A DNA stretch of 64,000 bases, taken from the NCBI GenBank assembly GCA_905178155.1, contig CAJINV010000006.1, positions 1,799,876 through 1,863,875 on the forward strand, given 5' to 3'. The position numbers and the translations under genes are program-made. The notes beneath the pieces were generated by a model. The model was not told where the DNA came from. It saw nothing but the letters and a program-made list of their open reading frames with translations, and made no database searches. The stretch's first letter is position 1, and each line of letters opens with the position of its first letter. Of the stretch, positions 3,901-64,000 are shown one piece after another. The DNA comes from Amoebophrya sp. A120. Lineage: Eukaryota; Protista; Dinoflagellata.

Positions 3901-6900
3901 TTATGAATTGCAAAATCACCGTACCTACTCGTAGTAATTCCATTTTATATATGCATTACAAATCTCTTTCTGAAGGTAAATCAGCATTACAAATTAAATT
4001 TGTAATGCTGGGCTAATTTGTAATGCAATTTATACGTAGAAGTACGATGGTGCTTTTGCAGTTCATACCGATTCGGAAGAAGGAAAGCGGTGGATGGAGT
4101 ATTTTCTTCTGGAAAAATTTCAGTTCTCAGAACAACAGCCAGAACTTGGCGTTGTACAGCAGCGGGGAACAGAAGTTGCACTTCCGCAGGAACAGCGCGG
4201 TCTTGTCTCCAATACAGACCTACCATCATCTGGCATAAGCGCAGCAGCAGCTATTGGAGCTCCGGATCATCTTCATGTGAACAAGACGTCCACTGGGACG
4301 AGCTCTTTCAAGGATTATCTGCGTGTGGTGCACAAGAATGTTGTTCCTCCGGCGACCACTTCGGCCAATCAAAGTCTGGCATCTGCTAGTTCAACATCCG
4401 CCCAATTCTTTTTCAAGCTCCAGGATTACGACCAGGTTTTGCGCATGCTGCAAGAGTTCGTTTCCGACAAGTGGCTCCAGAAATGGCGGTGGTGGAAGAT
4501 GAGACCGCAGAACGAAGTTGTTATACACCACGTTGACCAGGGGAGGGCTGCGCCTTCCGTAGAAGTACGACACCAACCCCATGCTGCTCAGCAGGGAGGG
4601 ACGGTGCTGTTAAACACTGGAGCTGTACCTCCATCCAGTGCAAACGCAATGCATCAGTTTCAGCCAAACTATAGCTATCCAAACAGTAACTCCGCGCCCC
4701 ATCGTCGATATAATCTTCATGCTGGTGCGGGTGCGCCACCGCATGTTGTTCACCAGAGCTATGAACGGCAAAAGTATCGTACTCGTATAAATGCATTACA
4801 AATTTCCTCAGCATGAGAAATAAAATTTATTGTCATGCGGATTTACCTTAAGGAAAAAATTTGCATAACTGTGATTACTACGAGTGCGATACTTTTGCAC
4901 AGGATAAGAGTGCAACCACCACAACAGCCTCGTCTGCGCAACCGGCCGCATCGTCCTCTTCGACTTTGAAGCAGATTCCCGCCCATGAGCTGTGGGACAG
5001 AATCTGGATCGACCCGATTCCCGCCTTGCACTTCGAATTGCTGAAGCGGGACACCAGTTTGTTTGATGCGAGCAACAGAAGCAGGGCCTCGTCGAGAGCC
5101 ACGAGTGTGCTGGAATTAGTGCTGAAATTTTGCAAAAAAGTCGCGCACTTGAGTTGTAGTGTTTCGGAAAACACAGACCCGGGTGAGGAGGACATGAATT
5201 TGGAGAAAGTGCAAGAAAATAAAGATGACGTTCTTGCACATCAAGTTCTACATCTCTCCTTCAAGGAAAAGCTGACAAGGGCCCGGGAGCAGTTCATTGA
5301 GAACCACCGACATCTCAGCCTCGGGACAGACACAAACGAGATGGAGAACAATGTGGCACTTTACCATGTATGCATTGCAAAGGTACCGTACTTGTCCCAA
5401 TTGCAAATATGCATTTACAAATCTTCTTCTTAAAGGAAAATCCGCATTACAAATTCAATCTGTAATGCTAAGTCAATTTGTGATGCAATTTATACTTAGT
5501 ACGATGTTTTTGCAATGCATACCATGACATTCTACTGGACATTGATTCCTATGTCCGACAGCTCTACGACTCAAAAATCTGGACCCGCCTGGCCCGCTAC
5601 CAGCGCGAGGGGGTGCTGAGGATGTTGAAGACCAACAACTGTCGTGCGATTTTGGCGGACGACTGCGGGCTGGGGAAGTCGGCGCAGGCGCTGGCGACAC
5701 TGGCGGCTTTGCCCGCGGCGGAGGCTTTTCCGTATCGAAAGGAAACATCCCCCGTCCCCATATCAAAACGAAATTTCTGATGCTGGATTTGTGTGCACAA
5801 ATCCGAGCTGTCTTGCTGGAGAGCACTGCAGGCCCATACTAAGTGTGAGTAGAGAGGTTTTGGCGGCCTAGGCGCTTAGCATCAAAAACCTCCGTGCTGT
5901 AGGCCCAACAGCATGACAAACCGCCTGCACAATGCGGCGGCTGTCTGTGGAGTTGTCTTCTTGCAAGACAGACACGATTTGTGACCACAAATCAGCATCA
6001 CAAAGTTCCACAAATATACCTTTTCAGTATGGGGAGGGGGGATTTTTCCTTTTGATATCCCGGTGTTGATCATCTGTCCCGCGAGCTGCAGGAACACCTG
6101 GGCTATCCTGTGCAGAAGTATCGTACTCATATTGCAATCATGCATCACAAATCTTTTTCTCAAGGCAAATCCCCATTACAAATTTCATTTCTCATGCTGG
6201 GGAAATTTGTAAATGCATTTATACGAGTGCGATACTTTATTTGCAATGCATATGGGCGCTGGAAATCGAGAAGTGGTTATCGCCCTTGTTGAATCCGCTG
6301 GAAGTGTTCTCGACGAGATCGGGCGCGTTTGAAATCTATCAAGTGCAATAAATATGTCTGGGTCTGGAAGATTGCAAGAGTTGTCATGCTAGTCTGGCAT
6401 GACTCTGCACTCTGTATTGCGTGGCCACAAACAGCCTCTCTCGCCTGTCATCTCATGCCGCAACGCAGTTTCTCATGCGAAATACGCAGCACAGAAGCAC
6501 GAGAAAACTTGTCATGCTTGGCTGCACATTACAATTCACCTATTGATCCCTGACTTGCATCACAAGTAGCCAGACCCAGGCATATTTGCAATGCATAAAA
6601 TCTTTGAGGAGTATCGGAAAGCGGAAAAAACCGCGAAAGAGCGCAACGACCCGGAGTATTTGAGCTCCAAGAAATTTGTCTGCATCACCTCGTTATCCTG
6701 TGCAAAATTATAGTACTCGTACTAATTGCGTTTATGCATTACAAATTTCTTTTTCAAGGTAAATCAGCATTACAAATAATGCTGGGCTAATTTGTAATGC
6801 AATTTGTGCTAGTACGATGCTTTTGCATTGCATACTCGTACCACCTTGCTTCCCGCTGCCAGGACCAGTTTACGCAACACAAATTTCATCATTTCCCCTG

Positions 6901-9900
6901 CAAGCACAAACTGCATCACAAATTTCACCAATTTATTTGGAGCGCATCTGTCACTTGTCATGCTGAACAGGATTGGAGAAAAATTTTGTCATGCGGGAAA
7001 CCGCATTTTTATGTGCAGTACGGGAAAGTTAAAAAATTTACGTGTGGATCCTTTTCCACCGGATCCCGTGGAAATTCGCGATCGTGGACGAGATTCACCA
7101 GTTTCTCTATGCATTGCAAACACGTCGGGGTTTGGAAAAGTGCAACTTGTCATGCTGCCTCTGGACTCGAAAAAAATCTGTATAACTGCACGAGCAGCAA
7201 CAGGAACCCAGTTCATGCTGTGCGGAGATGGCATTTCTAATGCGGGGTAGGCATCAAAAAGCCCTCAAAAGATCCGTAATGCTAGGACATGCATCACGGA
7301 CGTCATGGGCCAAGCGAAACATGTGAACCAGTACACGAAGGGTACCCAATACGCGAAGGGTACCTACAACATACGAAAGGACCAGAATACATACGAAAGG
7401 AGAGAGGAGCAGCGAAATCCGCTATACAAAAAAGCAGTTTTTGTATGTACTGCCGGACGCAGACAACGGAGTTGTATGGTCCAAGAAAAGCGAGTAAAAA
7501 GCTGGCCGTGAGTGTGGCAGAGCAGCAAATTGCTACTCAAAGCAGGCCACAATGCACCGCGCGCGAAAAAATCGCTCCGCGGAACAACAGAAGAGCGCAA
7601 AAGGGGGCTTGCGGAGAGCGCACTGCGCACAAGGAGCGACACAAGCGGAGAAAAGGGGCGCTAAACCAAAAAAACTAGCGGCGCGCGCGCGGTGAGGACC
7701 TATTGCGGATCGATATTTTGTTAGCAGGCGGTGGGGGCACGCTTGCAGGCGGCGCTTCGAAAACATACAAGGGCCGAGCTTGTTTCGTGTGCGCGCTTTG
7801 GTAGCTAGCAGAGTTATCTCGCTCCTTAGCACTCTTGCTGCAGAGTCTACTGAAAGTGGAGAAGACCGAGGTGTAGCTCATCTTTTTTCAATGTTATTCA
7901 CTGAGTGGCTGTTTTGTTTTGGCTACGCAGCCACGTATTGCAGTCGGACAAAACCAGGGCAATAAAAAACGAGGGCGCAGGGGCATCGTAGGACCAGTTG
8001 CGTACTACGGGGCCCCGAGTAGTTACTGGGGGCCCCGTACTTGACGGCCGGGCCAGTGCTGGAAGGGTCCGGCGGGACCAGAAGGGGCCAGACAAAATGG
8101 CCATTTTATATGCACTGGCGATTTGTATGTGGCGTTTGTTCTAGGACAGGAAGGGGCAGGGCCCTTCGTGTACTGGCATACAAATATATTATGGGGGTAT
8201 CAGTAATTACTGGTTCACATGCATGATAAACCAGCGCGCTTTTTCTTTTCCAGACCCAGACGCTTTTGCAATTCATATCCTTTGTCCGGAGCTGAAATCG
8301 AAGTACCGGAGAAACCAAGCGATCGAGGAGTGGAGAACGCAGAGTCGCGTGGCCCAGGTGGATCGCAACCGAAACGGGGGTGACATCTCGAATATCCGGA
8401 AGCACACGATGGAGCTATTAAAGCGCATGTCGAAGATCCTGCTGCTGTCAGGGACGCCCCTAGGCTCCAGTAGCAGCGTCTCTGCGATTTTTGGAATCGC
8501 GCAGCTGATCGGAATCCCCATGACCAATGAGGGTGCTGCACGTGTTGGCGCAAGTGCTTTGATGTCCTCCCCGACCTCGTTTTCAAAGGACCTTGTCCAA
8601 GTGGGACCAACGAGAATTCCAAACTTTTTCGACACCCTGAACGAGGAGCACTTCCTAAAACGCAACTGGGACCTGTGCGAGCACACGTGCGAACGAGCCG
8701 ACGAGCTGGCGTACCTGTTTCGAAATTACCTGCCCATTATCCGCCGCGAAAAGCACGAGGTGCAGGGCGAAATCGCACGGTTGCCGCCGTATTTTACCAA
8801 AGTATATCCAATGCAATATAGTACGTCTGGGTCTGGAAGGATGCGAGGTTTGTCATGTTCGTTCGGCACGACCGAAGAACTTGTGATGCGTGTCCAACTA
8901 GAGACCCTTTGTTTTGCTTGTCATCCAAAAAACGCAGCTTGTCATGCCGAAACTGCAACACTAAGAAAGCAGCGCAGATACTTCCCATGCTTGGCTGTGC
9001 ATTACAGAGCATTCACTATTCTGAACTCAGCATTACAAGTTTCCAGACCCAGGCATATTTTCTCGGAATAAAGTAATTCCGGTGAAAATTTCCAAGGAAG
9101 TGTTTGACTTCGTAAACGACTTACGCCCCGAGGTGGTGTTTCTAGAGGGAGAAGAGAGCAACTACAATACAGGGAACAACGCAGGAGATACAAACAAGAG
9201 TGCAGTTAATTCCGGAAGAGCAGCAGCACAAGCTGCAGTCGACAAGACAAATTTCGTTATCGCGACCGAGTATGAGCGTACCGGGTACATGAAAATCCGC
9301 GAGCTGTTTGCCCAGTACAAGAAAGACCCGTCCCATGGCACGGTTTCTGCGGGCGCCGCTGCAAACTCGGAGTCCTTCGCCTCAAGGGGTTTGTACGAGT
9401 GGCTCAAAAGCGACATTTTCGGGAAAGCGAGAAACCGCCGGAACAGTGTGGGAGAGACAGTGGAGGAGATCGGTCAAACGTTAGAAGATGACAGTGATCC
9501 GGAGGACCAGGACGCGGACCGTTTTGGTTTTCGCTCTCAACCTGAAGCAGCTGGGCGGCATGATACAACTGGCCAGAACACCAATACACGACAGCACGGA
9601 CCACACGGAGTAGAAAATAAATTCTCAAACCGGCACAAGAAATTCATTTTTTTCACGCGTCACCACCGGGTCACCGACTTTCTCGCACAAGTCTTGCTGG
9701 AGTTGCGACACTATGAACTGCAAAAGCCAATCGTGCGTAATAGTAATCGCATTACAAATTTTCTCAGCATTACAAATGGAACTTGTCATGCCGATTTACC
9801 TTGGGATGGAGATTTGTGACGCATAAATGCGATTACAACTACGAGTGCGGTACTACTTTCGCACAGGATAGTCACAAGCTCCGTATCGACGAGATCCGAC

Positions 9901-12900
9901 AGATTGACGGTAGAACGCCAGAGCAGGATCGCAAGGAGACGGTCGAGGAGTTATCAAATGCAAATATGTCGTCCTCTGGGTCTGCCGGGTTGCCGCAACT
10001 TGTGATGCGTATTTTGGATCGGACGAAAATCTGTCATGCGTGGACAGCAAAAATAACTTATGATCTGTCATGCGTGGGCAGCAATAATAATAGCTTACTT
10101 CTCGTACTCGTCACCAAAATCTGGAATTTCTTATGCGGGATTGTAGGCATTGGGGAAGCTCGTCAAGACCTGTGATGCTTTTGCTCGCATGCCAGAGCTT
10201 CTTGGTCACGCAAAAACAGCATGACAAAGTCAAAGTCCGCACTCTTCCAGACATCCAGGGATATTTGCTGTTGATAGGAATGGTTCGCGCACGAGGACTA
10301 CGCCGAGGAGACCCTGGCTCTGGTTTGCGGTCAGGAAGTATCGTAAGGAAAAATCCCTCCTCCCCATATCGAAAAGGAAATCTGTGATGGTGATTTGTGA
10401 CCACAAATCAGCTTTGTCTTGCGTGCAAGGCAAAGGGCACCCATTGGCGCATTGTACAGCGAGTCTATCCCGCGTTTTCGCCTATGTCAGACTTGTTTCG
10501 CATGCTCAGCTGCTAGCCGGATGCGTACCCAAATGGGCTTAGAATATGCCGACACGCTCTCGCTGCAATACAAAGTGCATTGGTGTACACAAATCCAGCA
10601 ACGCAAATTGTCTATTTGACTATGGGGTGGGGGCTTTTTTCACTTTGATAGGAAGCCATGGGGACGGGAGTCAACGGGCTGCAGATTTCTTCCTGTGCGA
10701 TTTTTGTGGAAATTCCGCTCTCCGCGGACCTATTTCGCCAGTGCTTCTCGCGCTTGCACCGGCATGGGCAGAAGGCGAAGCAGGTGGACATTTTCGTTCT
10801 CTCCGCGGAAATATCCTGTGCAAAAGCATCGTACTCGTACTAATCGCAGTCCTGCAAGACAAATTTCTTTTTCAAGCTAAATCATCATGACAAATTCCAT
10901 TTGTCACGCTGACCTAATTTGTATTGCAATACTACGAGTACGGGACTTTTGCAATTCATAGGAAAACTCGAGCAGTATCGACGGGAGCTGTGTCGGCGAC
11001 GGCATTGAGGACCGAACCCGCTGGGAAACGATTTTGGATCAGCAGGGCAAAAGCTCCGACTTTTTCTACAAATTCGACGACACTCTAGTGCCGGCGAGTC
11101 AGCATCTTGACGGGGGTGGGGGAGGTACGCAAATATTGAATGCGACAAGAAGACCCGACGATCAAGATCATCCTGGAGCTTCAACATTATGTGGGACGAC
11201 TGGATCAATGCTACATCCAGTGGTCCCAGCGGCACTACACCCAGGTGGCAGTGCCTCGATAACAACGACCTCCTCGCAATTCGTTGCGCAAAATAATAGC
11301 CTCCACCAACCCGCCCAGTTCCTCCCTTGTGGTCATCCACCAGCGACGGCCGTTGTTGCGGCACAATTCTACTCAGCTGCGCCGGGTCGTTCTGCTGTTT
11401 CCGCGCATCAAGGTGGGACGTCCAATCCGACCGCCCATCTCTCTGCCGCCGCCGAACAACCTTCTGCGGCCGCAAGGAGAACAAGCAAGAACTACACAAC
11501 TACTGCAAACGATAGCAGAAGCGGGGTTTCGAAAATCCAGGAGATGAAGCTGAAAATGGATTCCGCTCTGCGGATAGCCTCGAACGCGGAGAAAGCTGTC
11601 TACGAGAAGCAGGAGTTGAAGCTGCGAGATATGGGATTCTCAAACCTTACATTCTCAACTGTTTACATGTTTTATTTTTGTCATGCAAAATTACCATCAG
11701 ACAGCATCGAGATCGACGCGATCAATGAGTACTTCTACTTCGCATGACGAATAATTATTGGTTGAAGCGCCGAACATAGCATGGAGATTGATCTGAGCCA
11801 AATCTGTCGTGCAAGACGCGCAAGTAGTTTTGTTTGCAATGCACTTGTTTTGTTATTCCTGCATCTTCACAAATTTATGTAAGCACAAACAGTTGAGAAC
11901 GTAACGTCTGAGAACGCCATATGGGAGAGAAACCAACTGCGCAGTGGAGATCCTGCTTCGTCCGGCGACTTGCAGCGGCAAAAGTGGATCGACAAGTTGA
12001 ACTTCAACGAGGACAACTACCGATTCCTCGTGCACCCTCTGACAGAGCACTTGCACATGTTTGAAGTGCTGGCCCCAGAAGATCATGTTCTACTTGACGA
12101 AAAGAACGGAGCTCGTTCAGGGAGTGCGGTAGTGGGGAGCTACAACAAAGACGAGGAAGGAGGAGCAGCGTCTCCAAGCGAGGGACCACCAGCACGCGGG
12201 GACAATCATTTCATAGCTGCGACCACAACGTCGACATCATCCACTTCAACCACGAACCAGGTTTTGGAAACCATCGACCACAGCTTTTGTTTTGACAGCC
12301 AGGAATCCCGGGTGCTGCTCGATGTCGGTCAAGAAATATTAAGCCAAGAGCTCGTCGCTTCGCAACCTCCGCCGGGCGAGGTGGGTACAAAGCAGGTGGG
12401 CAGCGGTACTGCAGCTACTGCACCTGTTCTTTCCGCTGACACGACGACGGTTGGTAGCACGACCAAGGCACGTCACAGGAGAGTGACGAAGCGACTGCGG
12501 TTTATTCGGTACTTTTCGCAGGTTTCCAACGCGGATATCGGGGAAGCGAGGGTGCGGGCGGAGGTCGCGGAGGATAGAGATACCGGTCGTGTAGTGGCAC
12601 CATCGGCGGCTGGTGGTCGTGCAGATACTGGCGATGCGATCAACACTAGCAACGGGACAAATCAGGACGAACGAGATCATCTTCCGTCGTTGCAGATCCA
12701 GCAACAGACCGCCAAGAATGAATCCGATATCAGGAATATCCAAGAAAAAAACATTGTAGGTGTAACTTTTTTGGAGGAACAGCATTACAAATTTGTCTGG
12801 CATGACAGCAAAAACCTGTCATGCGCGGATAGTACGGCAAAACGCCCTTTAATGGACCCTATGATGCACGCCAAGCATGACAGACGCAATCATCTTGCGT

Positions 12901-15900
12901 GTTGCGCATCACAAATTTACACTAACAACGTTTTTTTCTTTGATAAGGAACTTCCTGCTCCTCACCCTCGCGCGCGATTTTTATGACCTGCTCAAATCGG
13001 TTACCATCTCAAATCGGTTACCATAGAATCTGGATTTTGTCTTGCATGAACAGCATGAGAAACCAATAGAGGGCTCCGCTTGCTGCAATACAAATTTCGC
13101 CAGATTCTCATGGGGTTTGAAGCTCCGGAACTTCTCATGCGCAATCCTATGGGACTAGACTAGATCATGCACTTCTTGCATCACAAATTTCCATATTCTA
13201 TTGTAGCGTTTCAGATTGTAACACCTGAGCAGGTTATAATTTTTGGGACACGTTTCTCCGCATTCCGGGTATCCGCAGGTGCGAGGTGGCCGAGTACCTG
13301 ACCGCGAAGGAGCTCGTGAAGTTCCTGCCGAACTACTGCGGAACACAGGAGGCGCTGAAACGGTATGAACTGCAAAAGTATCGTACTCGTAGTATTGCAA
13401 CACAAATTACCTCAGCGTGACAAAAAGATTTTATTTGTCATGCTGATTTAGCTAGAAAATGAAATTTGTCTTGCATGACTGCGATTAGTAAGTACGAGTG
13501 CGATGCTTTTGCACAGGATAAACGGCCGGACGGAACAAAACTGTACCTAGACGACACGGACGAGAACAGGCTGGCCCGATTAAAGGATACGCATCGCAAG
13601 AAATATGTCTGGGTCTAGATTTGTGATGCGAAATTTGAAGGACAGCGAGGAGATCTGTAATGCATGAATGCGATGGTCAGGCGGTTTTTTTGTTGTTGTA
13701 CTGTAAGCGAGTTTGTCATGCGTTTTGCAATTGGATCGTGCAAATAAGCCTTGCGAAACTTCTGATGCTGTTATGCCGTACAACACTGGGACACTCGACG
13801 AGTTTCAGCAACACAAATTTGTTCCAGACCCAAAAATATTTCCATTTGATAAAGGAGAAGAACTTTGTAAACGGAGAAATCTGCGAGGAGAAGATGCGAA
13901 TGATCAAAGAGAAGGGACTGGAAAAGGTAAGTACAAGTAGCATTGAAAAGGAACCAGGCCCCGGAGGGGCGAACGAAGGAGATCATGATCATGATGGAAA
14001 AAACACAGTAAAGACATCAAGTGGGCCGCACCTACACGACGTCGAGGGATCCTCGAGCCGGCACCCGGAAGAGATGAATAACGAAGTGGACGAGAACATC
14101 AAGCAAAGCAAAAGACGCAGGCTTTCATCGGATAATATGGAACAAGGTGGACCAACTTTCGTCGACATCCGTTGGACGGAAGCAAAGCTTCTAGCCCGCG
14201 GACACCAAATGGGAGGGAATTCCAATAACCAGGGTGGAGGTGTAACAACTGCTAGAGCTGGAGGTCCGGCGTCATCTGGAAATCCAAATCCACCTGGTGA
14301 TAATGATCATAGTTCCTCTCTTGTTAAAGACAGCACCAACACCAATACCGTCCTTGTGCCCTTCTGCCGCACAACGAAGTCGCTGTATTGCAGCAAGGAA
14401 TCCTGCTTGAAGTTTGCGATTGCGCACGACCCCGAAAAGTGGGAGAATTGCCGCGGTGCGGAAAATAACAACTGGATCGTCTTCGGGCACTGGAACGTCA
14501 TGTACTGCAGTGCGAAATGTTACGAAGACACCCGGCTGACCGTGTCGCGTGCGGAAGGCAGGGCGCAGTGCTGGCGGTACGAAAGAGGCGTTTGTCAGGC
14601 TTGTAGGTTAGACACGGAAAAGTTGCGCGAAGCCTTGGTTCGCAAATTCCGTCCGATGGCTACGTTGACCGATTTGAGTTATCGAAAGCAAAAATCCCCC
14701 CTCCCCATATCAAAACGAAATTTCCGATGCTGGATTTGTGTACACAAATCCGCGCTGTCTTGCTGGAGAGCAATTCAGCCCCATGCCAAGTGTGAGTAGA
14801 GAGGTTTTGCTGGCCTGGGCACTTAGCATGAAAAACATCCGCGCTGTAGGCCCAACAGCATGGCAAACCGCCTGCACAATGCGGCGGTTGTCTGTGGAGT
14901 TGCCTTCTTGCAAGACAGACACGATTTCTGGCCACAAATCAGCATCACAAATTTCCAAAATGGGGAGGGGGAATTTTTCCTTTTGATATGAGTCGCACCT
15001 TCACCGCGGAGGGGCTGTTACAGGGGTGTGTGGACGAGAACGTGGACGAAATAAACAAGGGCAGTGTATTATCAAAAGTAAAAATGTCTGGGTCTGGAAA
15101 CTTGTGATGCTGGGTGGCGTCTCATGATGAGGCTACAAATGCTGGCTCAGCATGACAAGTTTCTGAGCTCCTAGGTGTTGCCTATTCTGCATGACAAACT
15201 GCGCTTCTGCATCACAGAAAAACGGAGCTCTTGAGTAACGTGCATGACAGATTTAAGAGGCGTACCAGACAAGCAAAACAAACGTGAATTCTTCCAGACC
15301 CAGACATTTTTACATTTGATATGTATTTTTCGCGGATGACGGAGGTGGAGATGACAAGTTGGATGAACCAGCAGGAGAAACAGGTGATAAAAGCGACGTT
15401 GACGAAATACAGCTAGATGAAATGGCAACAAAAGCAAAACCAAGAGAAAACGAGACGGAAGCGGAGAGACTGCAACGGGAGTTGGATGAGGAGCTGGGAT
15501 TAGGCGGCAAGGATGATCTTCAGCGCAACGCGAAGAACGACATCAACTCTTCCGCCAGCGGCGCTGCATCAAGCTCTTCCTCTGCTGCGATAGTACAACA
15601 TAACGGCGGAAACAAGCGCGCTGCCGGTGGTACAAACAACAGCAAGGCAAGGCCGAAGAAGAAGCCGAGGCACTTCAAGAAAAAGACGAATCGGGCCGCG
15701 AAAATAAATCCGCATGATTTCTACTGGGATTTAGAGAACGATGATGCGGATCAATATTTCGAAAAGCCCGTACCGGAGGCATGGAACTACAATTTGAGCA
15801 CGATATCGCAGCACGAAAAAAGTGTCACAGTTACACAATTGTTGTGAATTCAGCAACACAAATTTTTTCTGCATGAGAGAAAAAGTTTGCAATGCAGAGA

Positions 15901-19619: not shown

Positions 19620-20350
19620 ACTTACTTACTTCTAACAAAACGATATCAAAGACGACCCAGAACTGCCTACTAACGACCTCCCAGAATTCCTTACTAACGA
19701 CCCCCCAGAATTTTTGCTATAACATAACAAAGACCTCCCAGAAGTACTGCAACGAAACGACCAAGAATTTCTACAACTAAACGACCAACCCGATATCAAA
19801 TGCAAAAGTGTCTGGGTCGGGAAGAGTGGAACTTGTAATGCTGGTGTCTGCGGATAATTCTAAAAGAAAAGTATCTGTGTTGCATGAGCAGCGAGAGGAG
19901 TCCAGTTCTTGGCACGCGCTGAGGGCATTTCTCATGCGTGATAAGTATGAAGAAGCTTTCGAAAAATGTGTGATGCTAGCACCTGCATCACAGACCTCAC
20001 GGGGCATGCAAAAACTGCATGACAAATCTCGCAATCCCCCAGACCCAGACATAGTTGCAATTGATATCCCAAGTACTGCAACTAAACGAACAACCCGAAG
20101 CACTGTAACGAGAAGAACCAGAATCAAGTACGCATCAAGCCGCAAGAGCACTCGAGGAACGAAGCGCATTAAGAGGAGTTTAGGTTTACAACCAAGACGA
20201 AGAGGGAGAACCGCAAGAGGAGTTTACAACCGAGACGAACAAGAAGAGAACCACAGCAGCTGCAACATTTTGCAACCGAGACACGACAGGAAGGTGGAGG
20301 ACAAAAAAACAATATCAAGAAGAAGTAGGTGTTTTTCAACATCAGCCTAA
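19620..20350 (+). pseudogene. Decayed repeat-protein coding remnant
   Basis: 24-30 nt repeats translate as NDLPEFL/NDQEFLQL/NEQPEAL with in-frame TAA stops. Carries a family A element. Confidence 0.35.
19794..20066. mobile_element. Family A element in a decayed repeat-coding region
   Basis: TATCAAATGCAAAAGTGTCTGGGTC...CAGACCCAGACATAGTTGCAATTGATA, imperfect TSD CCCGA/TCCCA. Confidence 0.85.
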
Positions 20351-21368
20351 CGAGACCGGCAGGAGAAGACGAGGTTGGAAAGCCTTCACGTATTTTTCAG
20401 CAGGTATTGGAATTATCGTCGTAGTAAATCGCTGCTCCGACCTACTCTGTGTAAAAAGATAGGCGGAAACAGGGACACAGCGTCCCAGGTGAATGCACTT
20501 CCAGCTGCGTCATCGATCTTTGCACCGCCGGCGCGCTACACTTGCATAGCCGTGTAGGTACTGCATGATGGCGGATTAAAAAAGAATATTAGGAGAAGTC
20601 GCGTCTCCCTACTTTTTCTTCACCCTGTTGCTTTCCCACATCTGTGAAATTTAATGTGAGCAGCTTGATGCGGCATGACCATGGCAGAAAACCCTACATC
20701 ACGATCGAACAACATCACGCACAGGAAAGAGACAAAACAAACTTCAACCGGAATCGCTCCCCGAGCATCAACAACGCCGAAAAGACTGGGGCGACCACGA
20801 CACGTTGCCTGAACCTGAGGACCAGGTAATTACGTTTGATGTACATCGACAGTCGATTCGACATGCTTAACCTTATGCGTAGGTGATTTTGAAAGTAGAG
20901 GAAGCTGCGTTACACGGTTTGTATTTCTTTGTAATGCGAGGAAAAGTTGATGTGAGTGAAACTGTAAGACGTTGCAAAAACGAGCAGAAGAACCTGAGCA
21001 GTCCCGAGTGTTACCGTCCAGCGCCATCGTGAAAGCATGTGGTTTGCCTGGACGCAGGCAAGACCTAGTGCTAATTACTTCATGGACTGTCGATACACTA
21101 TTTATAAGTACCGAAGAAAAATTGCATATTCTCTATCGATCTTTCCAACAGATCAAGACGCTGACCTACCGCTCTACTCCGATTGGAGGTGGATTAGATT
21201 TAGTACGACTTGCACAACACGTCCGTGGCCAAAGAAAAAAATAAAAATACGTTTTTACGGATTTTGTATCTGTGAAGAGATAGTCAATCCTCGCCGCACC
21301 ATTTGCAGCACAACCTTTGCCCAGCCTCGCGGCTTTTCCGAATCCCAAAAAAATCCTCGTGCAAGGGC

Positions 21369-53900: not shown

Positions 53901-56900
53901 TTTTCCCTCATCCGCTTGCGGGCCTAGCGTGTACTTATGTGTAAATGCCTAGGGTGGGTCCTGCGAGAGAGTTTGAAGCACTTGCATAATCCGTCATGCT
54001 CGGTCTTTTCTTTTGCAGTCTTGTATAAACATATTGAAATTCCCGTGCGAAGTGCGTGCTTCTCATGTTGCACACGCTAGGACAGCAATTTGCAAATTTT
54101 TACAACCATACTTTGTACCACTCTAGTCCATGACCCACCCTAGGACACTGCATGCATTACAAATCTCCATCTTAACCTAAATCCGCATTACAAATTCCAT
54201 TTTTCATGCTGAGGGAATTCGTCATGCGATTTATACTAGTACGTGTACGATGCTTTTGCATTTCATATGCGCGCCGTGGTCCAGAGCATGCCAACTCTTT
54301 ACCATAATCCGCATGAAAAATTTCTTCCATGATCTGTTTCTGCTGTAAATGCATCATGCCATGGGCATGACAAAGACGATAAAATTTTTTTGAATTTTTT
54401 CCACTTCATCAGGCCACGCTCCGACAGAAGCAGGTTCAGCTCGACGACATGGAGGCGAAAACTTTATCCACAGTAGTTGTATAAAACTCCTCCCGTACTG
54501 GTCACGTACAAAAAATGCTGGCTCTGCATGACAAAACACTTCATTTCCACATTCCTGATGTGGAGCATGACGAAGGTCATTTATCGAGTGGCAGTGAAAA
54601 AATCTGTGATGCATAGATATACGTGATGTTGTACGTGGTAAACAAATTTGTATTGCATAAACGACCCTGCAAGCCGACGAACTTCACAGCAAAGATGAGC
54701 AGATCGCAAAACTGCGGCACGAGAATCAATCGGAGCTGGAGCAACTGCGGTTATGCACTGCAAAAAATATGTCATCTGTGATGGAAGATTTGAATGACTG
54801 CATGATGCAACAAGAGCTTCTGGAAATGCGTGAATCAATAGGAGTGCACCTTAGCCTTTCATTTTCTGTCGCGCTGGATGCAGGTAGATTCGCTGGCTAA
54901 TTGAAAACATTATATGAATTCGGACACTCGCAACAAGGAAGCCGAAGATGAAATCTTGTTTTGCTGCCATGATGTAGTTTCTGTGCAAGAAACGGCCCTC
55001 CTGTCATTCAAGAACCACCATGACCAGACCCAGACATATTTTTTGCTTTCGATAGCGGTCGCAAATAAGTGAATCAGATAACCGCTTTAGCTATGACATC
55101 GCATACAGTTTCCCAACCACCGCACCTCCTCCTCGCACCAGAGGCTCGTCAGAAACATTTGTGAAGAAAGTGCAGGCCCTGCATGACAAACTGATTTCAT
55201 TTCGGGGCGATTGATGTAGTTTTGTTGGCTATTTGGTTTCCCTTTCCGTTTCAAAATAGTACTTATTCGGAACTACTGGGTCATGTTGTCATGCATGCAA
55301 GTGCTAGAAGATGAACCACAGGTAAAGATGAAGATAGAAACGAGGATGAAATCGTCATCTTCATTCTGCATTTTTACCAAGTTGAAGGAGGAGGCTACAA
55401 AGGAGGTACTGGGTTATTTGTGCACCTTCATACTCGCCTATCCAAGAAAAAAACTGTGTTAGTGTAACTTTCTTTGGCTGACAGCATCACAAGTTTGCTC
55501 TACATGACAGAGAAAACCTGTCACGCATGGCTTATAAGGGAAAACACAGCTGAAAAGAGGACTTCGTGGTTGTCTGGCATGACAGATGTAACTCTGTTGC
55601 ATGTTCTCCATTACAAAGTTACACTTACACAGTTTTTTTCTTGCATATCGCCAATCCCAAGCGAGAATCCGCGACTTGGAGTCTTTTATGCATTGCAAAA
55701 GTACTTCTATCGTATCAGTTGCACTTCTAGTGGTAATTGCATTACAAAGTTGCTCACCATCTTCACAAATGGAATCTGTCAGCGTCACAAATGGAATGGA
55801 ATTTGTCTTCATGATGATGTAGCTCCTTCAAGGAACTACCCTTCCCAAGGCTTGGGAAGAAGATTTGTAATGCATAGCTGCAATTAGTAGTACTCCCCGA
55901 GAGATCTGAAACGAGCACCGCCCGAGACTTTACTGGGTGAATATCTGAAACAGCTAAAAGATAACTCTTTTTGAATTTTTGCAGCGCGCGCAAGCTTGCG
56001 CTGCCGGGGGGCTTCGCCCTCCCCACGCTCGCGAAAGGTTTTGGACTTTACCCCGCCTCTTCGGCTTTTTCTTCCATTGCGTGCAGTGTAGCCTCGGCAG
56101 GCGATTCGTTAGTTTTCCCCGCCGCCGGCTCGCGTGCTGATGTGGGCGCCCTTGGGTTGTTTTCCGTTTTTTTTGTTGCTCGCGTGGCGCGGGTTTCCAT
56201 GTCTGAGCTAAGGCGAGCGGCTCCGCGGTGTTTTGTGCTCTATATATTTTGCCGGGGCTTTTTGTGCCTTTTTGCTATTCTATGGCAGCAGGAACATGAA
56301 CAACAGTCCGCCCCTGCAGTTGGCGCCCTTTTGTTCTTTTTCGTGTCGAAATTTTTGCCGCTGCTCTTTTTTTTTTTTCGTTAGTAAATATTGCCCCGCT
56401 AGCACATAGGATAGCCCGCGGCGCTTGTGCCTTTCCGTGCCTTTTGGTAGCGTGCCTGCCAGCGCAAACAACCGCGGGCCGTTTTCCGTGTTGCATTGGC
56501 TTTTGCCGTTTTTCTACTAGCTGCTCGAGCATGTTTGCCGCATTTTTGCACTGGCCCTCGCCGGTCTGTGCACTTCCCGGCCCCCTCCGCGTATTTTTGT
56601 GGGCCAAACCACGCTGCGCCGGTTGTCTGTGTTTTTCGCACTTTCCTTCCAGAGCTAGCGGCGCGACTGTTTCGCGTAAGTGCCCTGCATTAGCAACAAG
56701 CTAGGCTCTTCGTTGGTTTTCCATGTAATGTAATCCCGGAGGCCGGTTCGGCGTGTCAGCCAGCGGCCTGCTTCTTGGTGTGGGCATTTTTCTGATGTTT
56801 TTCGCTTTGCGCGCTGACCGCATGGCGTTTATCTTCATGCCCGGGCGCAGAGGAGTGACGCGGCAGCGTTTTGCGCTCCTTTTCTGCAAGTGTGCGGCTT

Positions 56901-59900
56901 TGTCTTTGTTATCCTTTTTGCGCTGCAGCGCCAGACCCGATTTACCAAGGAAGCACAAGAGGCGCCGCAGTTGCTAAGGTTCTGCGCTAAGGTTGGCGAC
57001 GTTGTCCATGTTCTGCCTTCGTCTTCCTTTTTTGGTGTCTTTTCGCTGCTTTTTTGCCGTACTTCGCTCATTTTGTTGCGTTTTTGTGTCTTTTCGAGCT
57101 ACGCGGAGCCTTTTCGGCGCATTTTCTTTGGGCCTAAAAACGAACAAACTGCCTGGGGATGATTATTCTCGCCGCCTTTTTGCCGTATTTCATTGGGTCA
57201 CCCTGCCGCGCTTTTGCGCCTTTTGAAACTGAAGGAATGCTCTTTGACACATTTCGGCCCTCAGAGCGGCCAAACTGTCTGGAATTGGCCTGGCGGGTGC
57301 GATACATAGCGCCACCGCTCTACGGGCTTGCTTCTGCAAAATCACGGGCGCGCGCCTTGTTGCGCTTTTGTGTCTTTTTGGAGAATTTGCAAAGTGTTGC
57401 ACTTTTTCGCCTATTTCGATGGCCTTGCGACGTTTTTGCCTTAGCTTGGGTCTTTTGGTACATTTGCACACTTTTCGAGCTAACTAAGTGAAGCCCATGG
57501 CCCACATGTGTCGCATTTGCGGCTTTTTGACTTAACAAGACCAGCTCTGCGCTGTTTTTCCTCGCATTTGGGTCCTTTTGCTGTGTTTTTGTGCTTTCCC
57601 ACGATCATTTTGCTGCGTTTTTGGGCCTTTTTTGCTGATTTTTGCGGAATTTGAGCACTTTCGACACATTTCGGGCCTCAAAAAGTCCGAGCCGTCTGCT
57701 TTTGGCTTTACCCGTGGGTCATTGCCAGCGAACGCGCTGCAGCGCTTTGCAAAAACACCGGCGCCCGCTTTGGTCTGTTCTTGGCTGGTCGTGGTTAGTG
57801 TGCAAATGGTCGCACTTTCTTGCTTATTTTGATGGTTTTCCGACGTTTTTGTCTTAGTTTGCGTTTTTTTGGGCGTATGTGCACTTTCCAGGCCCAACTA
57901 GGTGAAGCCCACGGCCCGAATGTTGCGCGTTTTTGGCTTTTTGGCTTAACAAGAGCAATTTTGCTGCAAAATAGGACTACTTAACTGCCATCAAAGAGGC
58001 GCGCTCTTTCTTTACAAAGAGTGTGACCTCGTTGCCATCGGCACGCGGGTCGCCGTGGTTTGGGTTGTTTTTCGTTGGTGTGCAAAGTGTTGCGCTTTTG
58101 TGTTTATTTCGATGAATTTGCGTCCTTTTCTTCTAAGTTTTCGCTTTTTTGCGCATCTGCGCAATTTTTAGGATTAACTAGGTGAAGCCATCGTGCGCAT
58201 TTTCGTCGTTTTTGTTCTTTTTGACTTAACAAGGCCACTTTTGCACTAAGATGATTTCACTTAGCTTCAAAAAGGTGCACTTTTACCTTAAGAAAATTGG
58301 CATTTTTTTTTGCATGTAATGCATGTTTGCAATACAAGTTAGAGACGATAGCGGTACTTTTGCAGTGGATATCTTTGGTGAAGATGCAACAGCAGAACCA
58401 GAAGAACGTATTCATGGATTTTGATAAGATGCGAGCAAGGGGTTAGTTTTGTTTGTCATGCAAGATTTCTCATGACGTACATGATTATTTCTCATGCGTG
58501 TATCTATGCCATCGCCATGTTGATGAGCTACATCAAAAAATTTCCGAATTGTACAGGAGCGCGAACAGGAGATTGAGGTGTCAAGGCTTCTCCACCTGTT
58601 GCTCGACGAATACTCCGGGGAGGTCATGCTCGGCGAGGAAAGAGGAACGCCCTTTAACCTGTGTAAAAGTACTACCGTACTACAACTCGTAGTACAACTT
58701 GTGGCAGTCCTGCATTACAAATCTTTGTCTGCAAGTAAAAAATCCGCATGACAAATCCCATAATTTCCCATTATGCTGAGGAAATTTGTAATGCAATTCC
58801 TGCTAGTACTGCGTGTACCACGATAGTACTTTTACAATCCATACCTTATCTGCAGCAGCTAGGCCGCATTATTGAAGAAACGGTGTCGATACACCAGAGA
58901 CAAGGTACGAAAATGCCTATGATGCGTTCCTATGCATGACAGGTTTGTGTTGTATTGGGTTCCTATGCATGACAGGTTTGTGTTGTATTGGGTTCCTATG
59001 CATGACAGGTTTGTGTTGTATTGGGTTCTACTCCTACATCAGAAATCACAAACAAAAATTATCATGAAAAATCCTCCAGTGATCGAAACGCGGCAAGTTT
59101 CCGGGGCTCGCGACCAACTCCGGCAGGAGAACCTGAAACTAACCTTATCCTGTGCAAAAGTTCAAATATCGATAAAACTGGATAATTCTAGGTCGAGATC
59201 GAGCTGCAGACCACTTCTAGGTCGACATGCATAGGCGCATACAACTTCTAGGTTACATACTTCATCTAGGTCGACGTCGTGTGGTTTTCTCCTACTAGGA
59301 GAAGTACCTGAAGTACTAGCATTGAATTTTTTATATAAATTCCATTGATAACTTATTCAATCATGCCGAGCAGGAATCAACAAAATTTGTCATGCAAAAA
59401 TTCTTTCACTAGTATCGTATTTACTTTTGCAGAGGATACAGGCGGGACGTGAATGATTTGCAGCGGGAGTTGGCGAATTCGGGGTTTTTCGCGACGGTGT
59501 CCAAGGTCGGCTATGAGAGCTCACAACTCCCCCTGTTCCCCCCGAGCTGTACCATCCGAAATGAGCAGCAATACAAACGCCACCACATGTGGAGCCTGTG
59601 CATGACAAAGTCATGCGCACCCTCGTGTAGAAGTACTGTTTGGGCCTGCTCCGGATGAATCTGTCATGCAAACAGTGCCACAGGGAAGCGAAGGAAGCAC
59701 TTGGATTTGATGGGGTGTAGTTGCATGACATCAAACCAGGGGGAGCAGGGGGAGTTGTGCACTCCCATATCGGCAACGCGGTGTTCTCGAGGTGTCCCGG
59801 GCGGGGAGGCGCTGGGGGACACAAAAAACAGTATCCTGTGCAAAAGTATCGCACGTAGCATAAATTGCATTACAAATTAGGTTAGCCTAACAGATGGACT

Positions 59901-60035
59901 CTGTAATGCTGTTTTTGCTAAGGAAGGCGATTTGTCATGCATATTTGCCATTAGTTCGAGTGCGATACTTTTGCAACTGATAAACACGACGGGCTGCCAA
60001 TTTCGAACTTCCACGACACGCGCGAGGATTTATAG
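44919..60035 (+). CDS. Very long coiled-coil (golgin/myosin-tail-like) protein with an acidic Phe-rich N-terminus
   Basis: ATG 44919 (MADSVWDNFDADF) to TAG 60033-60035. E/K/Q/A heptads with a recurring EIK(E/Q)KARE(R/K)I motif. Elements: 44996-45187, 45234-45464, 45512-45773, 46402-46619, 46770-47024, 47109-47373, 48171-48357, 48388-48649, 48856-49013, 49249-49567, 49720-49874, 50160-50307, 50663-50922, 50998-51322, 51381-51589, 52104-52292, 54465-54659, 54752-55054, 55092-55432, 55439-55647, 55687-58371, 58655-58843, 59146-59438, 59512-59769, 59832-59982. GT-AG introns: 46078-46344, 51641-51970, 52324-54412, 58408-58556, 58905-59079. Confidence 0.82.
45234..45464. mobile_element. TIR introner family G
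   Basis: TIR TATGAAAGTGCACAACTCCC...GGGAGTTGTGCACTGTCATA, TSD CGCGT. Other copies start at 46402 and 59512; degenerate copies at 18078 and 55092. Confidence 0.9.
50998..51322. mobile_element. TIR introner family F
   Basis: TIR TATCCTGAGTAAAACCTACGTCCCCACCTCCCCA...TGGGGAGGTGGGGACATTTTTACTCAGGATA, TSD AATTA. Other copies: 28034-28351 and 37206-37433. Confidence 0.88.
52376..54151. mobile_element. GC-rich insertion (~1.8 kb) nested in the family B element 52330-54267, itself inside the GT-AG intron 52324-54412
   Basis: Flanked by ATGCAT direct repeats (52370-52375, 54152-54157). Imperfect TIR GCGGAATCCTAG / CTAGGACACTGC. Many CCTAG/CTAGG motifs near the ends. Host B sequence resumes at 54152. 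Confidence 0.72.
55439..55647. mobile_element. TIR introner family D (~209 bp)
   Basis: TIR TATCCAAGAAAAAAACTGTGTTAGTGTAACTTT...AAAGTTACACTTACACAGTTTTTTTCTTGCATA, TSD TCGCC. Other starts: 12737, 15804, 27789, 34501, 42513, 51381; D-like at 36861, 63558 and 63972. Confidence 0.92.
55895..58290. repeat. T-rich repeat-derived insertion (~2.4 kb) inside the family B element 55687-58371
   Basis: Host TIRs and TSD TCTTT are intact at both ends. Three diverged copies of AACTA(A/G)GTGAAGCC...TTTTTG(A/G)CTTAACAAG at ~57482, ~57896 and ~58175. Boundaries approximate. Confidence 0.65.
58926..59027. repeat. 33-bp tandem repeat, 3 copies, within a GT-AG intron
   Basis: GTTCCTATGCATGACAGGTTTGTGTTGTATTGG three times. 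Confidence 0.95.
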
Positions 60036-60574: not shown

Positions 60575-60837
60575 TATCAAATGTAAAAATGTCTGGGTCT
60601 GGAAGATTCTGAGACTTGTCATGCATGTTTTGCATGACCAAGGATGTCTGTAATGCACGACCTAGCATCCCAGATTTTTAGAGGGCTTCCTGATGCCTAC
60701 TCCGCATGACAAACGCCCTTCCCGCTTAGCACAAATCAGACTCCTCTTGCTGGTCATGCAATACAGATTTTTTTTACCTTCCAAAGACAGCATCACAAGT
60801 TGCAACCTTCCAGACCCAGACACTTTTACATTTGATA
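60575..60837. mobile_element. Family A element outside any recognised CDS
   Basis: Intact TIRs and perfect TSD GCAGG; very similar to 41908-42169 and 63246-63507. Confidence 0.9.
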
Positions 60838-62391
60838 GCAGGCGCCAGCTACTTAGACTTACCGAGTTTCACTTCTAGTACACGTAAACGCAATTTCAAA
60901 GAAAATTCGCTTCCCACTGTGGTCCCTGTCGGGTGCAGCAGCATGGGACTACTTAAGCACTTAGATGCGGTTCTACTCCTCGCATCGTCTTGGAATTTAT
61001 TTCCTTCTTTCGGAAATGAACTGATGATCATGAATTTCCTACCTGTAGTTATGCTGTAGTTGTGGAAAGAAATCAAAATTCGAAAATCAAAATGTGGTCT
61101 TACCGTTGGACGAGCAAAAATGTTGTACCAAAAACTGATACTGACAAATGAATTTTTACAACATGTATCAAAACGGAACTAGTACAACGACCCATCTTCT
61201 CAATTCAGAGTCATGAAGCGAAACAACCAAGGAAGGTAGTAGCTTCATCGCTGCGGCGGCTGCTCTACTATTTCTTGTACTCGACTCAGGTGATTTCTGA
61301 TATTTCTGGTCTGCTATAGTGCCAAGGAGAATGAAGGACTGTCTCGCGGTCCTATGGTCTGGTCGTGATGTAGTTCTGTTGCGACGCCGCGATGGATCGA
61401 AGTCACGCTCTTTTTCGAGTGGAGAAAAAAATCAAGATCATTAGCCCGTATGAATTGTCGAGGTTCATCATCAATTTTTTTACTTTGTTCAGCACTGAAA
61501 ATATCGGTAGGTGAGGATCTTGCACCATTTGGTGTTGTACAACAGTGCATAAATGAAACGGATCACAAATAAACGAGGACCCAGAGCCAGAAATTCTTGT
61601 TGACACGCAAAAATAAAACGCAAATGTTCATCTCGGCAGATCTGGATCTTGTGTTTTGGACCAGGGCCTCTTGTTCCTCTACGCGTTCAATAATGCGAAG
61701 ATTGTGATTGGCCCAACCTCAAAGTGAAAATGATTTGTAATGCAAAAAAACGACTCCAGTTGGAGCACCATTTGTAGTCGGCGCATGACAAATTTCCCGG
61801 GCACTCAAAACGTGTCTGTCATGCTAGTTAGGCAAAGGGATGCCCTCCTCTCATGCTAATCAGGAGCCCAATTCTGAACCCGTAGAAGCGCAATAGTCGG
61901 CCTCCGTTGCGTTCTCTGCAATGCAGTCTTTTTGGTGTCGCATTTCATGCATCACAAATTATTTCCACTTTAAGGATTTCCATTCTGAGGGTGTCATAAC
62001 ACATTCTTCTACTCTAGGTCAACCGCTCCTCCAGGATAAATTGGTTCGACGGCTCCTGAAATATGTTAAGATCCTTAAACAAGATGACACACCATCAACG
62101 ACATGGACGAGCAGTAGCTGATGATTTATTGTCCATTTGATTTCAATCTCAATCTCAATTGATGTCATCACGACGACCACAGGCCTGAAGCTACTTGATA
62201 GAAACGGTCTTGACGACGTAGTTGAGGATTATATATATAGTGGCATTAGTCTATTTCTACTTCTAGTTCTACACAATTGCTATTAGTACACGACACGGTG
62301 AAGAGGACTACTTACTTTTGCTCTACTAGTGTTCACCGAGCCGTGCTGTCACTTTTTCCTTGAGCAGCAAGAAGTACTAGAATTGATAAGA

Positions 62392-64000
62392 ATGAAGCGT
62401 TCCCGACAGAATGCGGGTCACGACGAGGACCAGGTCTCCTTCGTGAACAACGACACAGCTCCGGCCCAAAACGACGTCGACATGATCGATGTAAATTTCG
62501 AGTTATGCTGTGCAAAAGTATCGTACTCGTATAAATGCAGGTCTTGCATTACAAATTTCTTTGTCAAGGCAAATCAGCATTACAAATTTTATTTCTCATG
62601 CTGAGGAAATTTGTAATGCATTTATACAAGTATCGGATACTTTTGCAGTTCATACGAGTTCTACGAACCCTTCGAAACCGACTTCCACGGGGTCCGGCTA
62701 TGCATTGCAAAAGTATCGTACTCGTATAAATGCATTACAAATTTCCTCAGCATGAGAGATAAAATTTGTAATGCAGATTGAGCTTAAGAAAGGGATTTGT
62801 AATGCATGATTGCAATACGAGTACGATACTTTTGCACAGGATACCGGCAGCTTCTGAACAAATCCTTCGAGTTATTACAATGAAAAATGCCCCCTCCCCA
62901 TATCAAAAAGAAAATCTGTGATGCAGATTTGTGGTTACAAATCAGCTTGGTGTTGCTAGAAGGCAAAAGATGCGGACTGAAGTGCTGCCTAGCGTGGGAA
63001 GGCCGTGCTGCTCCAGCAGGACAGGAGGCAACTGGAAGTGGGAAACAGCATGACAGATTGCCTGCAATTCAGCCCGCAGCTGCGTCTACTCTTGCTGGCT
63101 TTCTAGCAATACAAGTCGAGTTGTGTACTCAAATACAGCATCACAAATTGCGTTTCCGATATGGGGTGGAGGCTTTTTTCCCTAGGATACGAGTGGTGCA
63201 AGACGGATCCCATTTTCGATTTGACGGAAGTGACGGACGTGTGCTTATCAACTGTAAAAATGTCTAGGTCTGGAAGATTGCCAGGTCTGTCATGCATATT
63301 TTGAATGACCCATGATGTCTGTGATGCATGCCCTAGCATCACAGATTTTTAGAGGACCTTTTGATGCCTCTACCGGATGAGAAACGCCCACTCCGCGTAG
63401 CACAAACTGAACTCCTCTTGCTGGTCATGCAATACAGATTTTTTTACCTTCCAAAGACAGCATCACAAGTTGCAACCTTCCAGACCCAGACATTTTTGCA
63501 TTCGATAATGCTGCAACCAGGGCAACATCGGAACGGTGTTGAAGACTACGGATCAACTATCAAACGAAAAAAGTTCGTCACGATCACGCGTGCGCACTTT
63601 TGCAATACAAAATTTTCTGGCATGCGTAAAAATGCATCACAGGCAAACTTCATAAGGGATTTCCCTAGACGAGTTTCTGCAAAGGACGGAAAAGCTCAAG
63701 CTGTGATGCTAAAAGAATTTGTAGTGCAAGTTCGTGACTGCGGCAAACTTTTTTCTCTCCATATCAACAGGCGGGCGCTGGCGAACAACAGATACAAGGT
63801 GGCGGCAAAACTGCTTCTGGCGAGCAAAACAACAATCTTTCCTCTTCCGCCGGCGCGGCCGCGGCTGGCGCGGCCGGGGGCAGGGGAGCAACGACCACGA
63901 CGCCACAGGAAACGGGTTTATTCGGCATCACGACTGCAGTGAATCTGAAGCAGTACAAGTCCTCATTCACCTATCAAACAAGAAAAAGTTCGTCGCGATC
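62392..64000 (+). CDS. BCP1: BCP1/BCCIP family protein, 5' part, runs off the window
   Basis: Reconstructed MIDVNFEFYEPFETDFHGVRQLLNKSF..FDLTEVTDVCCNQGNIGTVLKT..GLFGITTAVNLKQYK matches the BCCIP/Bcp1 N-terminal pattern (FEF..D(F/Y).G(I/V)..LL; L.DL...Q..IG.V.K; FG....NL). Elements: 62504-62654, 62699-62843, 62873-63189, 63246-63507, 63558-63763, 63972-end. Confidence 0.85.
62699..62843. mobile_element. TIR introner family B (representative of ~33 copies, mostly 140-170 bp)
   Basis: TIR TATGCATTGCAAAAGTATCGTACTCGTAT...ATACGAGTACGATACTTTTGCACAGGATA, TSD CCGGC. Other starts: 3902, 4760, 5369, 6104, 6694, 9712, 10812, 13364, 18477, 28394, 32571, 33231, 33743, 34234, 34858, 35622, 36592, 39392, 41596, 42775, 44996, 48171, 48856, 49720, 50160, 52104, 52330, 55687, 58655, 59146, 59832, 62504. 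Confidence 0.93.

Follow-up and report, generated by a model that had tools for sequence, protein, structure and literature searches.

A 13-bp motif, present in four to six copies in both orientations and often spaced 31-33 bp apart, is carried by nearly all of the introns with TAT...ATA ends found in a stretch of 64,000 nucleotides from the dinoflagellate Amoebophrya sp. A120 (assembly GCA_905178155.1, contig CAJINV010000006.1, positions 1,799,876 to 1,863,875 of the forward strand; this whole stretch is called the window, and positions are counted from its first letter). Judging from sequence, the motif is predicted to be bound as double-stranded DNA by a protein common to all families, most likely an integrase-type transposase that copies every one of them, and this reading is given about an even chance of being right. 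Subterminal repeats as such are known from other elements; what is new is a single phased array common to a dozen intron-forming families that cannot be aligned with each other.

The introner elements of A120 have been described as non-canonical introns of about 240 nt, whose absence from mRNA is published for A120 in general, with short direct repeats and inverted ends in which TAT is followed, after seven variable bases, by consecutive As (Farhat et al. 2021, PMC7789003). The elements of the window resemble them in their TAT ends followed by seven variable bases and at least three As, in their short boundary repeats, and in that they interrupt coding exons and can be removed precisely. By what means non-canonical introns have spread in their tens of thousands in Amoebophrya, and how they are excised when they have no GT-AG ends and no U1 small nuclear RNA (snRNA) has been detected, is unsettled in the parts of the literature considered here (PMC7789003, PMC11282704), where the published view is that the families are numerous and strain-specific, share no motif and lack a transposase.

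Within the window 83 intact elements were curated, 58 of them from 60 program calls and 25 bounded by hand. Since the hand-bounding was steered by unassigned motif hits, the window motif count is partly circular, and numbers obtained blind to the motif carry more weight. Two samples of this kind are available: a search of the window for terminal inverted repeats (TIRs), which gave 59 calls covering 13,730 bp, and a second set of elements from another assembly. The latter started from a scan for the family B end pattern in 19 of 64 parts, which returned at least 153 stretches, kept as 147 loci (0.8 Mb including overlaps), all from one metagenome assembly related to the window and skewed to B-rich regions with intact B ends; 368 elements were located in these loci by ends and duplication only, and none in shuffled loci. 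The families are the same as in the window, with best matches 67-97% identical, and the sole near-duplicate pair of loci (L002 and L019) had no element in common along the aligned stretch. A palindrome between two adjacent elements (62590-62761) was dropped from the element set, and a call at 11628 was dropped before counting and its boundaries redrawn. Scans of viral contigs with the TIR pattern gave no match, a match in one prokaryote genome was a chance match inside a coding region, and no Rfam match was found in the window.

The strict form of the motif, GCAT[GCT]ACA, occurs 235 times in the window, 123 times on the + strand and 112 times as its reverse complement. Elements, interrupted and degenerate ones included, occupy 20,141 bp and hold 224 of these copies; the 83 intact elements alone hold 215, where Markov models of element sequence (orders 1-3) predict 5-17, and the density of 11.4 per kb in them compares with 0.45 outside, which means that the motif is far from equally frequent in other DNA. 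The 59 motif-blind TIR calls account for 149 of the 235 copies. At least one strict copy is present in 79 of the 83 window elements and at least three in 47, so that the several copies per element announced in the preliminary description are found in part of them only. In the second assembly a strict copy was found in 359 of the 368 elements, and at least two sites of the longer matrix described below in 364, the mode being four; the claim that the motif fills the introner families is thus borne out. The same is true of its absence from exons and from the island at 21.3-25 kb: there are 0 strict copies in 15,650 bp of exon and none in 21,300-25,000. Composition predicts only 1.2 in the exons, which are therefore at background, depletion not being demonstrated. 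The other 27,656 bp contain 11 strict copies where 2.5 are expected, three of them belonging to one tandem repeat. This repeat, at 58929-59030 and outside recognised elements, consists of a 33-bp unit present three times in tandem with one motif copy each, the unit length being equal to the motif spacing. Several of the copies outside elements look, by eye, like element remnants.

Regarding the shape of the motif, a mixture-model search was discarded because of its palindromic or AT-rich optima, and only its k-mer ranking was kept; with families equally weighted and without any seed, GCATCACA and GCATGACA are the top 8-mers. Seeded hard iteration, used instead, gave a full motif of about 13 bp, H-G-C-A-W-B-A-S-A-R-R-T-t, with 14.7 bits from 349 sites. 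The motif is thus longer and more degenerate than the core proposed previously. A matrix built from family B alone matches 102 sites in family A, 22 in C and 25 in D, where shuffled sequence gives 2.7, 0.9 and 0.8, respectively. Of 10 held-out families, 9 score above the shuffle maximum with this matrix, all but K; a matrix trained on A does so in 9 of 10 as well, with K as a tie. In a check of motif against spacer conservation, over 15 subfamilies of at least five copies each, the substitution level is 0.04 in the core, 0.074 in the TIRs and 0.16 in the spacers, although calling sites on the subfamily consensus introduces a slight bias toward conserved columns. The core is slower than the spacer in 15 of 15 subfamilies, about four-fold and with no CpG effect, and between subfamily consensuses it is 82-97% identical, against 51-70% for the spacers.

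Same-strand pairs of sites 31-33 bp apart are present in 9 of 11 window families and in 12 of 13 families of the second assembly. When one random copy per family is taken, a mean of 7.4 families have such a pair, whereas 3,000 randomisations give 1.2 at that distance and 3.6 when the best 3-bp window is taken. The individual pairs previously pointed out at 3953/3984, 34891/34922 and 36634/36665 (31 bp) and at 41950/41982 (32 bp, reverse strand) are all there; that at 42091/42122 does have a spacing of 31 bp, but position 42091 holds the variant GCAATACA and not a strict copy. Pairs on opposite strands cluster at 14-17 and 45-50 bp, and an opposite-facing site or remnant tends to stand 16-18 bp past the first site (mean score -0.9 vs -7.8 +/- 1.0, from 24 non-independent consensus pairs, 9 of which score above zero). 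With sites and TIRs masked, alignments across families reach a Z of at most 4, and 5-13 in several related subfamilies, little sequence remaining in B and D. The spacing of 31-33 bp is therefore kept where the spacers do not align, for which ancestry alone is insufficient, and this answers the caveat formerly attached to it, namely that spacing might only reflect common descent. As for the three helical turns, 31.5 bp fits them, but other recurrent spacings (18, 39 and 49 bp) are out of helical phase, and no general phasing was found apart from 31-33 bp and its multiples, at about 93-97 and 124. The spacing can equally well be read as a protein footprint.

The ends of the elements are also shared. 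The window elements start with TAT and finish with ATA, in a common frame TAT-S-N3-TGC-AAAA; by position, TAT is found at 160-164 of the 166 ends, and A at positions 11-13 in 137-148 of them. The TIRs had been considered different between families, which does not wholly hold, given that this frame and a 5-bp duplication are common to all. Direct repeats of 5 bp are perfect in 51 of the 83 elements, a figure that was partly selected for, and 6-bp repeats in 0 of 83; in 520 copies found by homology and not selected on duplication, 385 have a perfect one. The elements are thus short, non-coding, bounded by TIRs, flanked by a duplication of fixed length and present in many copies, like miniature inverted-repeat transposable elements (MITEs). 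The two TIR arms covary within copies in families A (p 0.012) and G (p 0.002), not in B or D, which can be explained by subfamily structure. Excision of each element together with one duplication copy restores open frames of 1,495, 2,033, 852 and 841 amino acids across 9, 18, 16 and 12 elements, respectively. Mismatches between duplication copies track codon position (21 of 740 at first and second positions vs 35 of 400), which confirms that the spliced frames are real; in detail, the 228 in-frame copies show 12 of 379 at first, 9 of 361 at second and 19 of 180 at four-fold third positions. Over all loci, the mismatch at codon positions 1 and 2 (0.028) is below half the four-fold rate, this half being 0.053; both duplication copies may be constrained, and the placement of the junction may vary within the 5-bp repeat.

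Whether such sites are read on DNA or on RNA can be approached through their strand and pairing. Among 302 copies of the second set lying inside spliced frames of at least 250 amino acids, 686 sites are sense and 726 antisense (p 0.30). Family G, the strong sites of which all face one way, is inserted 12 and 11 times in the two orientations, and no strong sense site exists in 19 of the 302 copies, nor any antisense site in 13. Mirror partners agree at variable position 5 in 179 of 413 cases, 173.1 being expected, and the other variable positions behave in the same way; of 80 single tests, 2 reached p 0.02. This absence of strand bias and of covariation is as expected for a double-stranded DNA site, and on balance the motif behaves as one; the binder had been proposed to act on DNA or RNA, and of these DNA is favoured and RNA disfavoured. 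An RNA-level signal acting in the transcript, either as a single-stranded site or through pairing of forward and reverse copies into stems, is consequently improbable: the fixed sense polarity of the former and the partner covariation of the latter are not seen, and this reading has already largely failed, even if the motif occurs in both orientations in most families, predicted folds join 31-73% of sites to another site (family G, with 24 of 135, being the exception), 140 of 283 copies have their last sense site at 30-49 nt from the 3' end, and weak opposite-strand remnants are kept in G elements. The UnAC core of the motif is also reminiscent of the spliceosomal branch-point consensus. A functionless relic, inherited by all families from one element with an internal tandem array, would account for the common TIR frame and duplication length, which point to a shared origin, and for the spacers of B and of a B-like subfamily that still align at 51%; it is nevertheless the least probable of the explanations, very far from likely, because the conservation of the core over the spacers, within subfamilies and between their consensuses, already contradicts it, and the spacing persists in families without alignable spacers. 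A site for a host protein that binds or modifies DNA, unrelated to removal and from which the elements profit through access or escape from silencing, is compatible with all the double-stranded signatures and with the excess of copies outside annotated elements. It is, however, no more probable than an RNA signal, since the motif is missing from exons and from the GC-rich island, several of the outside copies look like element remnants, and no reason is provided for site positions that are fixed relative to the element ends.

The preliminary description also held that the motif marks elements for removal, and the decay of sites after insertion bears on this. Sites may be conserved among copies because intact elements alone are copied, which acts before insertion, or because the host requires them, which acts after it. 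The two duplication copies, identical at insertion, serve as a clock (copies with more than two mismatches, 13 of 520, were left out) and differ at 139 of 2,535 positions (0.055). For the invariant motif positions G1, C2 and A8, a comparison of neighbouring copies gives 304 differences in 5,926 (0.051; p 0.52 vs the clock), the level that neutral decay of the sites after insertion would produce. An apparently slower core was rejected as an artefact of nearest neighbours picked on all columns, being gone with spacer columns alone. Coding constraint slows the clock, the neutral change being about 0.036-0.053 per copy, and in the 228 in-frame copies the inner sites are at this level (99/2232 = 0.044), while the outermost site at each end is below it (22/1358 = 0.016) and similar to the level of the terminal TAT, which is 0.015-0.019 in the 499 of 597 copies whose ends have no gaps. 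The claim of a removal mark finds no support in the inner sites, and a removal role is suggested only for the two outermost ones. Their deficit reaches p 0.002 against the joint clock and 0.0003 against four-fold sites, but 0.10 when all positions are used, the most conservative choice. It is rather unlikely, yet to be taken more seriously than the alternatives above, that the same DNA site, and chiefly its outermost copies, is recognised by a host or domesticated protein through which the element is tagged on the template and then removed precisely, either co-transcriptionally or, less likely, as DNA. The outer sites can be set against the four-fold duplication positions (19/180 = 0.106 between two copies; Fisher p 0.002, joint clock), at least two sites are kept in 299 of the 302 in-frame copies, a DNA signal indifferent to orientation would account for removal whichever way an element faces, and U1 snRNA is reported as undetected in A25 or A120 in the relevant part of PMC7789003. 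Several points reduce the force of this evidence: the split into outer and inner sites was chosen post hoc, after the dispersion analysis; mismatches are slightly more frequent at the edges of the duplication (p 0.05), so that insertion errors may be counted in the clock; in some small subfamilies the outer rate exceeds the inner one; no relaxation is seen in the 39 copies that lack an open flanking frame (3/228), though many of these may be coding; there is no under-dispersion of damaged sites among copies; and the element at 54752-55054, in a 140-amino-acid spliced frame, has one weak site. With the same reserve, one protein might use the array for two purposes, copying the elements and marking them for exact removal in either orientation, the extreme form being excision from the DNA in the transcribing parasite stage with one duplication copy left behind; if this were true, intron identity in this lineage would be written on the DNA template and not in splice sites.

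The preferred reading, in which the array serves a shared integrase-type transposase, starts from the combination of predicted motif binding, common TAT ends and a 5-bp staggered cut, which points to a DDE enzyme of that type acting in trans. One protein would bind side by side along the element, at one same-facing site per 31-33 bp, with an opposite-facing site or remnant often about 17 bp along between them, and once bound it would help to bring the two element ends together. New copies would arise only from elements with a preserved array; the inner sites of an inserted copy would then decay about neutrally, and the TIRs would be the main requirement for its removal from the transcript. Of the common trans-factor proposed earlier, the sequence-specific shared binder is thus supported by the conserved core, the cross-family matrix and the shared spacing, but a function as a removal mark is no more than suggested, for the outer sites. 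A number of results weigh against the transposase. The slow decay of the outermost sites is not predicted by selection for mobility alone. Sites occupy the whole element and not just its ends, their order varies by family, and family E has no 31-33 bp pair in any of 11 second-set copies, 95-97 bp being found instead. No autonomous element was recovered from the window and the 0.8 Mb of loci, a small share of the genome, in which six long TIR-bounded stretches were nested or spanning cases; no integrase signature was detected in 148 sequences and no transposase domain in 28 open reading frame (ORF) pieces of the window. Furthermore, putative transposases were reported in A25 only, and mobilisation by transposases in general was argued against, in the part of Farhat et al. 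(2021, PMC7789003) concerned. In the Emigrant element the repeats copy part of the TIR according to the portion of PMC1636448 considered, while here a motif variant is scored at only 17 of the 166 ends in the window.

Binding of this type has precedents, because the subterminal repeats of the MITE Emigrant are bound cooperatively by the Lemi1 transposase (PMC1636448, in part). As in Emigrant and the TIR transposons cited there (hAT, CACTA and Sleeping Beauty), the elements are non-autonomous and carry short repeated internal sites in either orientation that are more conserved than neighbouring DNA. They differ in that one motif, for the most part no copy of the TIR, is common to a dozen unalignable families and forms a whole-element array with a period of 31-33 bp, and in that the elements are also precisely removed introns. 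The termini are TA...TA as in IS3EU and GingerRoot, unlike which (6-bp duplications in the entries considered of PMC10045372) the duplication here is of 5 bp, as in Ginger2 (4-5 bp) and in A120 family 38, listed as "Ginger, 5-bp TSD, TA/TA termini" among the 58 A120 rows of a supplement to PMC12130899. Family lengths of 149, 209, 234, 252-260 and 319 bp in Dataset rows of the same source match window families, and no element sequence in the A120 material considered from it matched two end patterns. In the parts of the published A120 account at hand (PMC7789003), terminal repeats only are described, with no family-specific inverted repeat or internal motif, in contrast to the internal motif, spacing and uniform 5-bp duplication that unite the families here. 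The nonconventional introns of euglenids (PMC11282704) are similarly transposon-like, with TIRs, duplication-like junctions and an unsettled removal route, although the sections concerned describe short CAG/CTG pairs near the ends and no repeated internal motif. The motif of these elements is undescribed in the full-text literature considered, to which Roy et al. 2023 (Curr Biol), theses and the supplementary figures of Farhat et al. do not belong; the single co-occurrence of the 8-mer with Amoebophrya in the literature is a primer.

One 13-bp site with a fixed spacing in all families would imply a single recognising protein and offers a ready bait to catch it. Besides, the motif can serve as a marker when the autonomous element is sought and these introns are annotated, the spread and removal of which become directly testable; if the outer sites were needed for removal, this would be a splice signal read on DNA.

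The families are named by letters of our own, F and R in site maps denoting the motif on the + strand and its reverse. Family A (3580-3852; about 250-270 bp, usual map R38 R70 F90 F129 F183 F214) has other members at 6337-6597, 8805-9070, 9952-10276, 13588-13851, 15070-15321, 16182-16448, 16519-16780, 16828-17052, 19794-20066, 27392-27682, 33917-34142, 35876-36140, 36293-36544, 41908-42169, 45512-45773, 46770-47024, 47109-47373, 48388-48649, 50663-50922, 54752-55054, 60575-60837 and 63246-63507. The copy at 54752-55054 is old, with a perfect duplication and intact ends, almost wholly decayed motifs and an internal CAG-GTAG, and that at 7108-8277 is interrupted by about 1 kb of other DNA, its removal plus 5 nt keeping the SNF2 helicase frame. 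Family B (3902-4067; about 140-190 bp, map F F R R with motifs at 3953 and 3984 (+) and at 4001 and 4019 (-)) is also found at 4760-4906, 5369-5521, 6104-6252, 6694-6834, 9712-9870, 10812-10960, 13364-13520, 18477-18638, 32571-32788, 33231-33375, 33743-33881, 34234-34386, 34858-34998, 35622-35783, 36592-36741, 39392-39529, 41596-41755, 44996-45187, 48171-48357, 48856-49013, 49720-49874, 50160-50307, 52104-52292, 58655-58843, 59146-59438, 59832-59982, 62504-62654 and 62699-62843, with a degenerate copy at about 6870-7050 and a B-like one at 54465-54658. A long B-like element (55687-58371; 2,685 bp) has a perfect 5-bp duplication, three motif sites and a nested insertion of about 2.4 kb. The split B element at 52330-54267, apparently within a GT-AG intron, has a GC-rich insertion of 1.8 kb in its first motif copy with no matching duplication; this insertion (52378-54147) shows imperfect inverted ends and a short duplication (4 or 7 bp), and its ORFs gave no Pfam match.

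Family C (3083-3393; about 310-325 bp) has three same-strand pairs 32-33 bp apart and further members at 5733-6057, 10339-10650, 14680-14988, 49249-49567 and 62873-63189, and family D (12737-12945; about 210 bp) at 15804-16018, 27789-27998, 34501-34709, 42513-42740, 51381-51589 and 55439-55647. In family E (43142-43378, and 11630-11921, 32836-33104 and 33422-33696) sites alternate as R F R F, and it is the sole multi-copy family without a 31-33 bp same-strand pair. Family F comprises 45234-45464, 18078-18312, 46402-46619 and 59512-59769, with an F-like copy at 55092-55432; family G, 37206-37433 and 50998-51322, the latter inside a + strand frame with six strong sites all on the non-sense strand; and family I, 12982-13238, 31642-31974 and about 61706-61998. 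Family H is a single full copy (63558-63763), and J (36861-37031) and K (42775-43078) are singletons. Long insertions nested in elements were noticed at 7200-8220, 55920-58310 and about 28430-31640, and a 540-bp repeat is nested in an I element (L009, 1035-1575) and in a G element (L057, 8835-9370) of the second set, the two being 87% alike; elements seem to serve as safe landing places for insertions.

The first host gene (782-18650, + strand) is of great length and encodes an SNF2-like helicase that ends in an HNH-like piece at the C-terminus, both assignments being below the Pfam cut-off, and it is broken by about 29 elements; its frames are 782-7237 (1,495 amino acids once 9 elements are removed) and 8145-18650 (2,033 amino acids, 18 removed). 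This gene resembles ZRANB3/SMARCAL1. Other + strand frames are 31561-37532 (852 amino acids without its 16 elements) and 46303-51646 (841 amino acids without 12), the latter of coiled-coil-like composition. Apparent GT-AG introns at 46078-46345 and 51641-51970 share one gene with elements, and the second has a reverse motif at 51668. The GC-rich island at 21300-24717, without elements or motif, contains a 645-amino-acid open frame (22780-24717) without Pfam match. Finally, AT-rich degenerate short repeats surround a gap of 553 bases at 29200-30540, and a 10-bp tandem repeat occupies 31260-31400.

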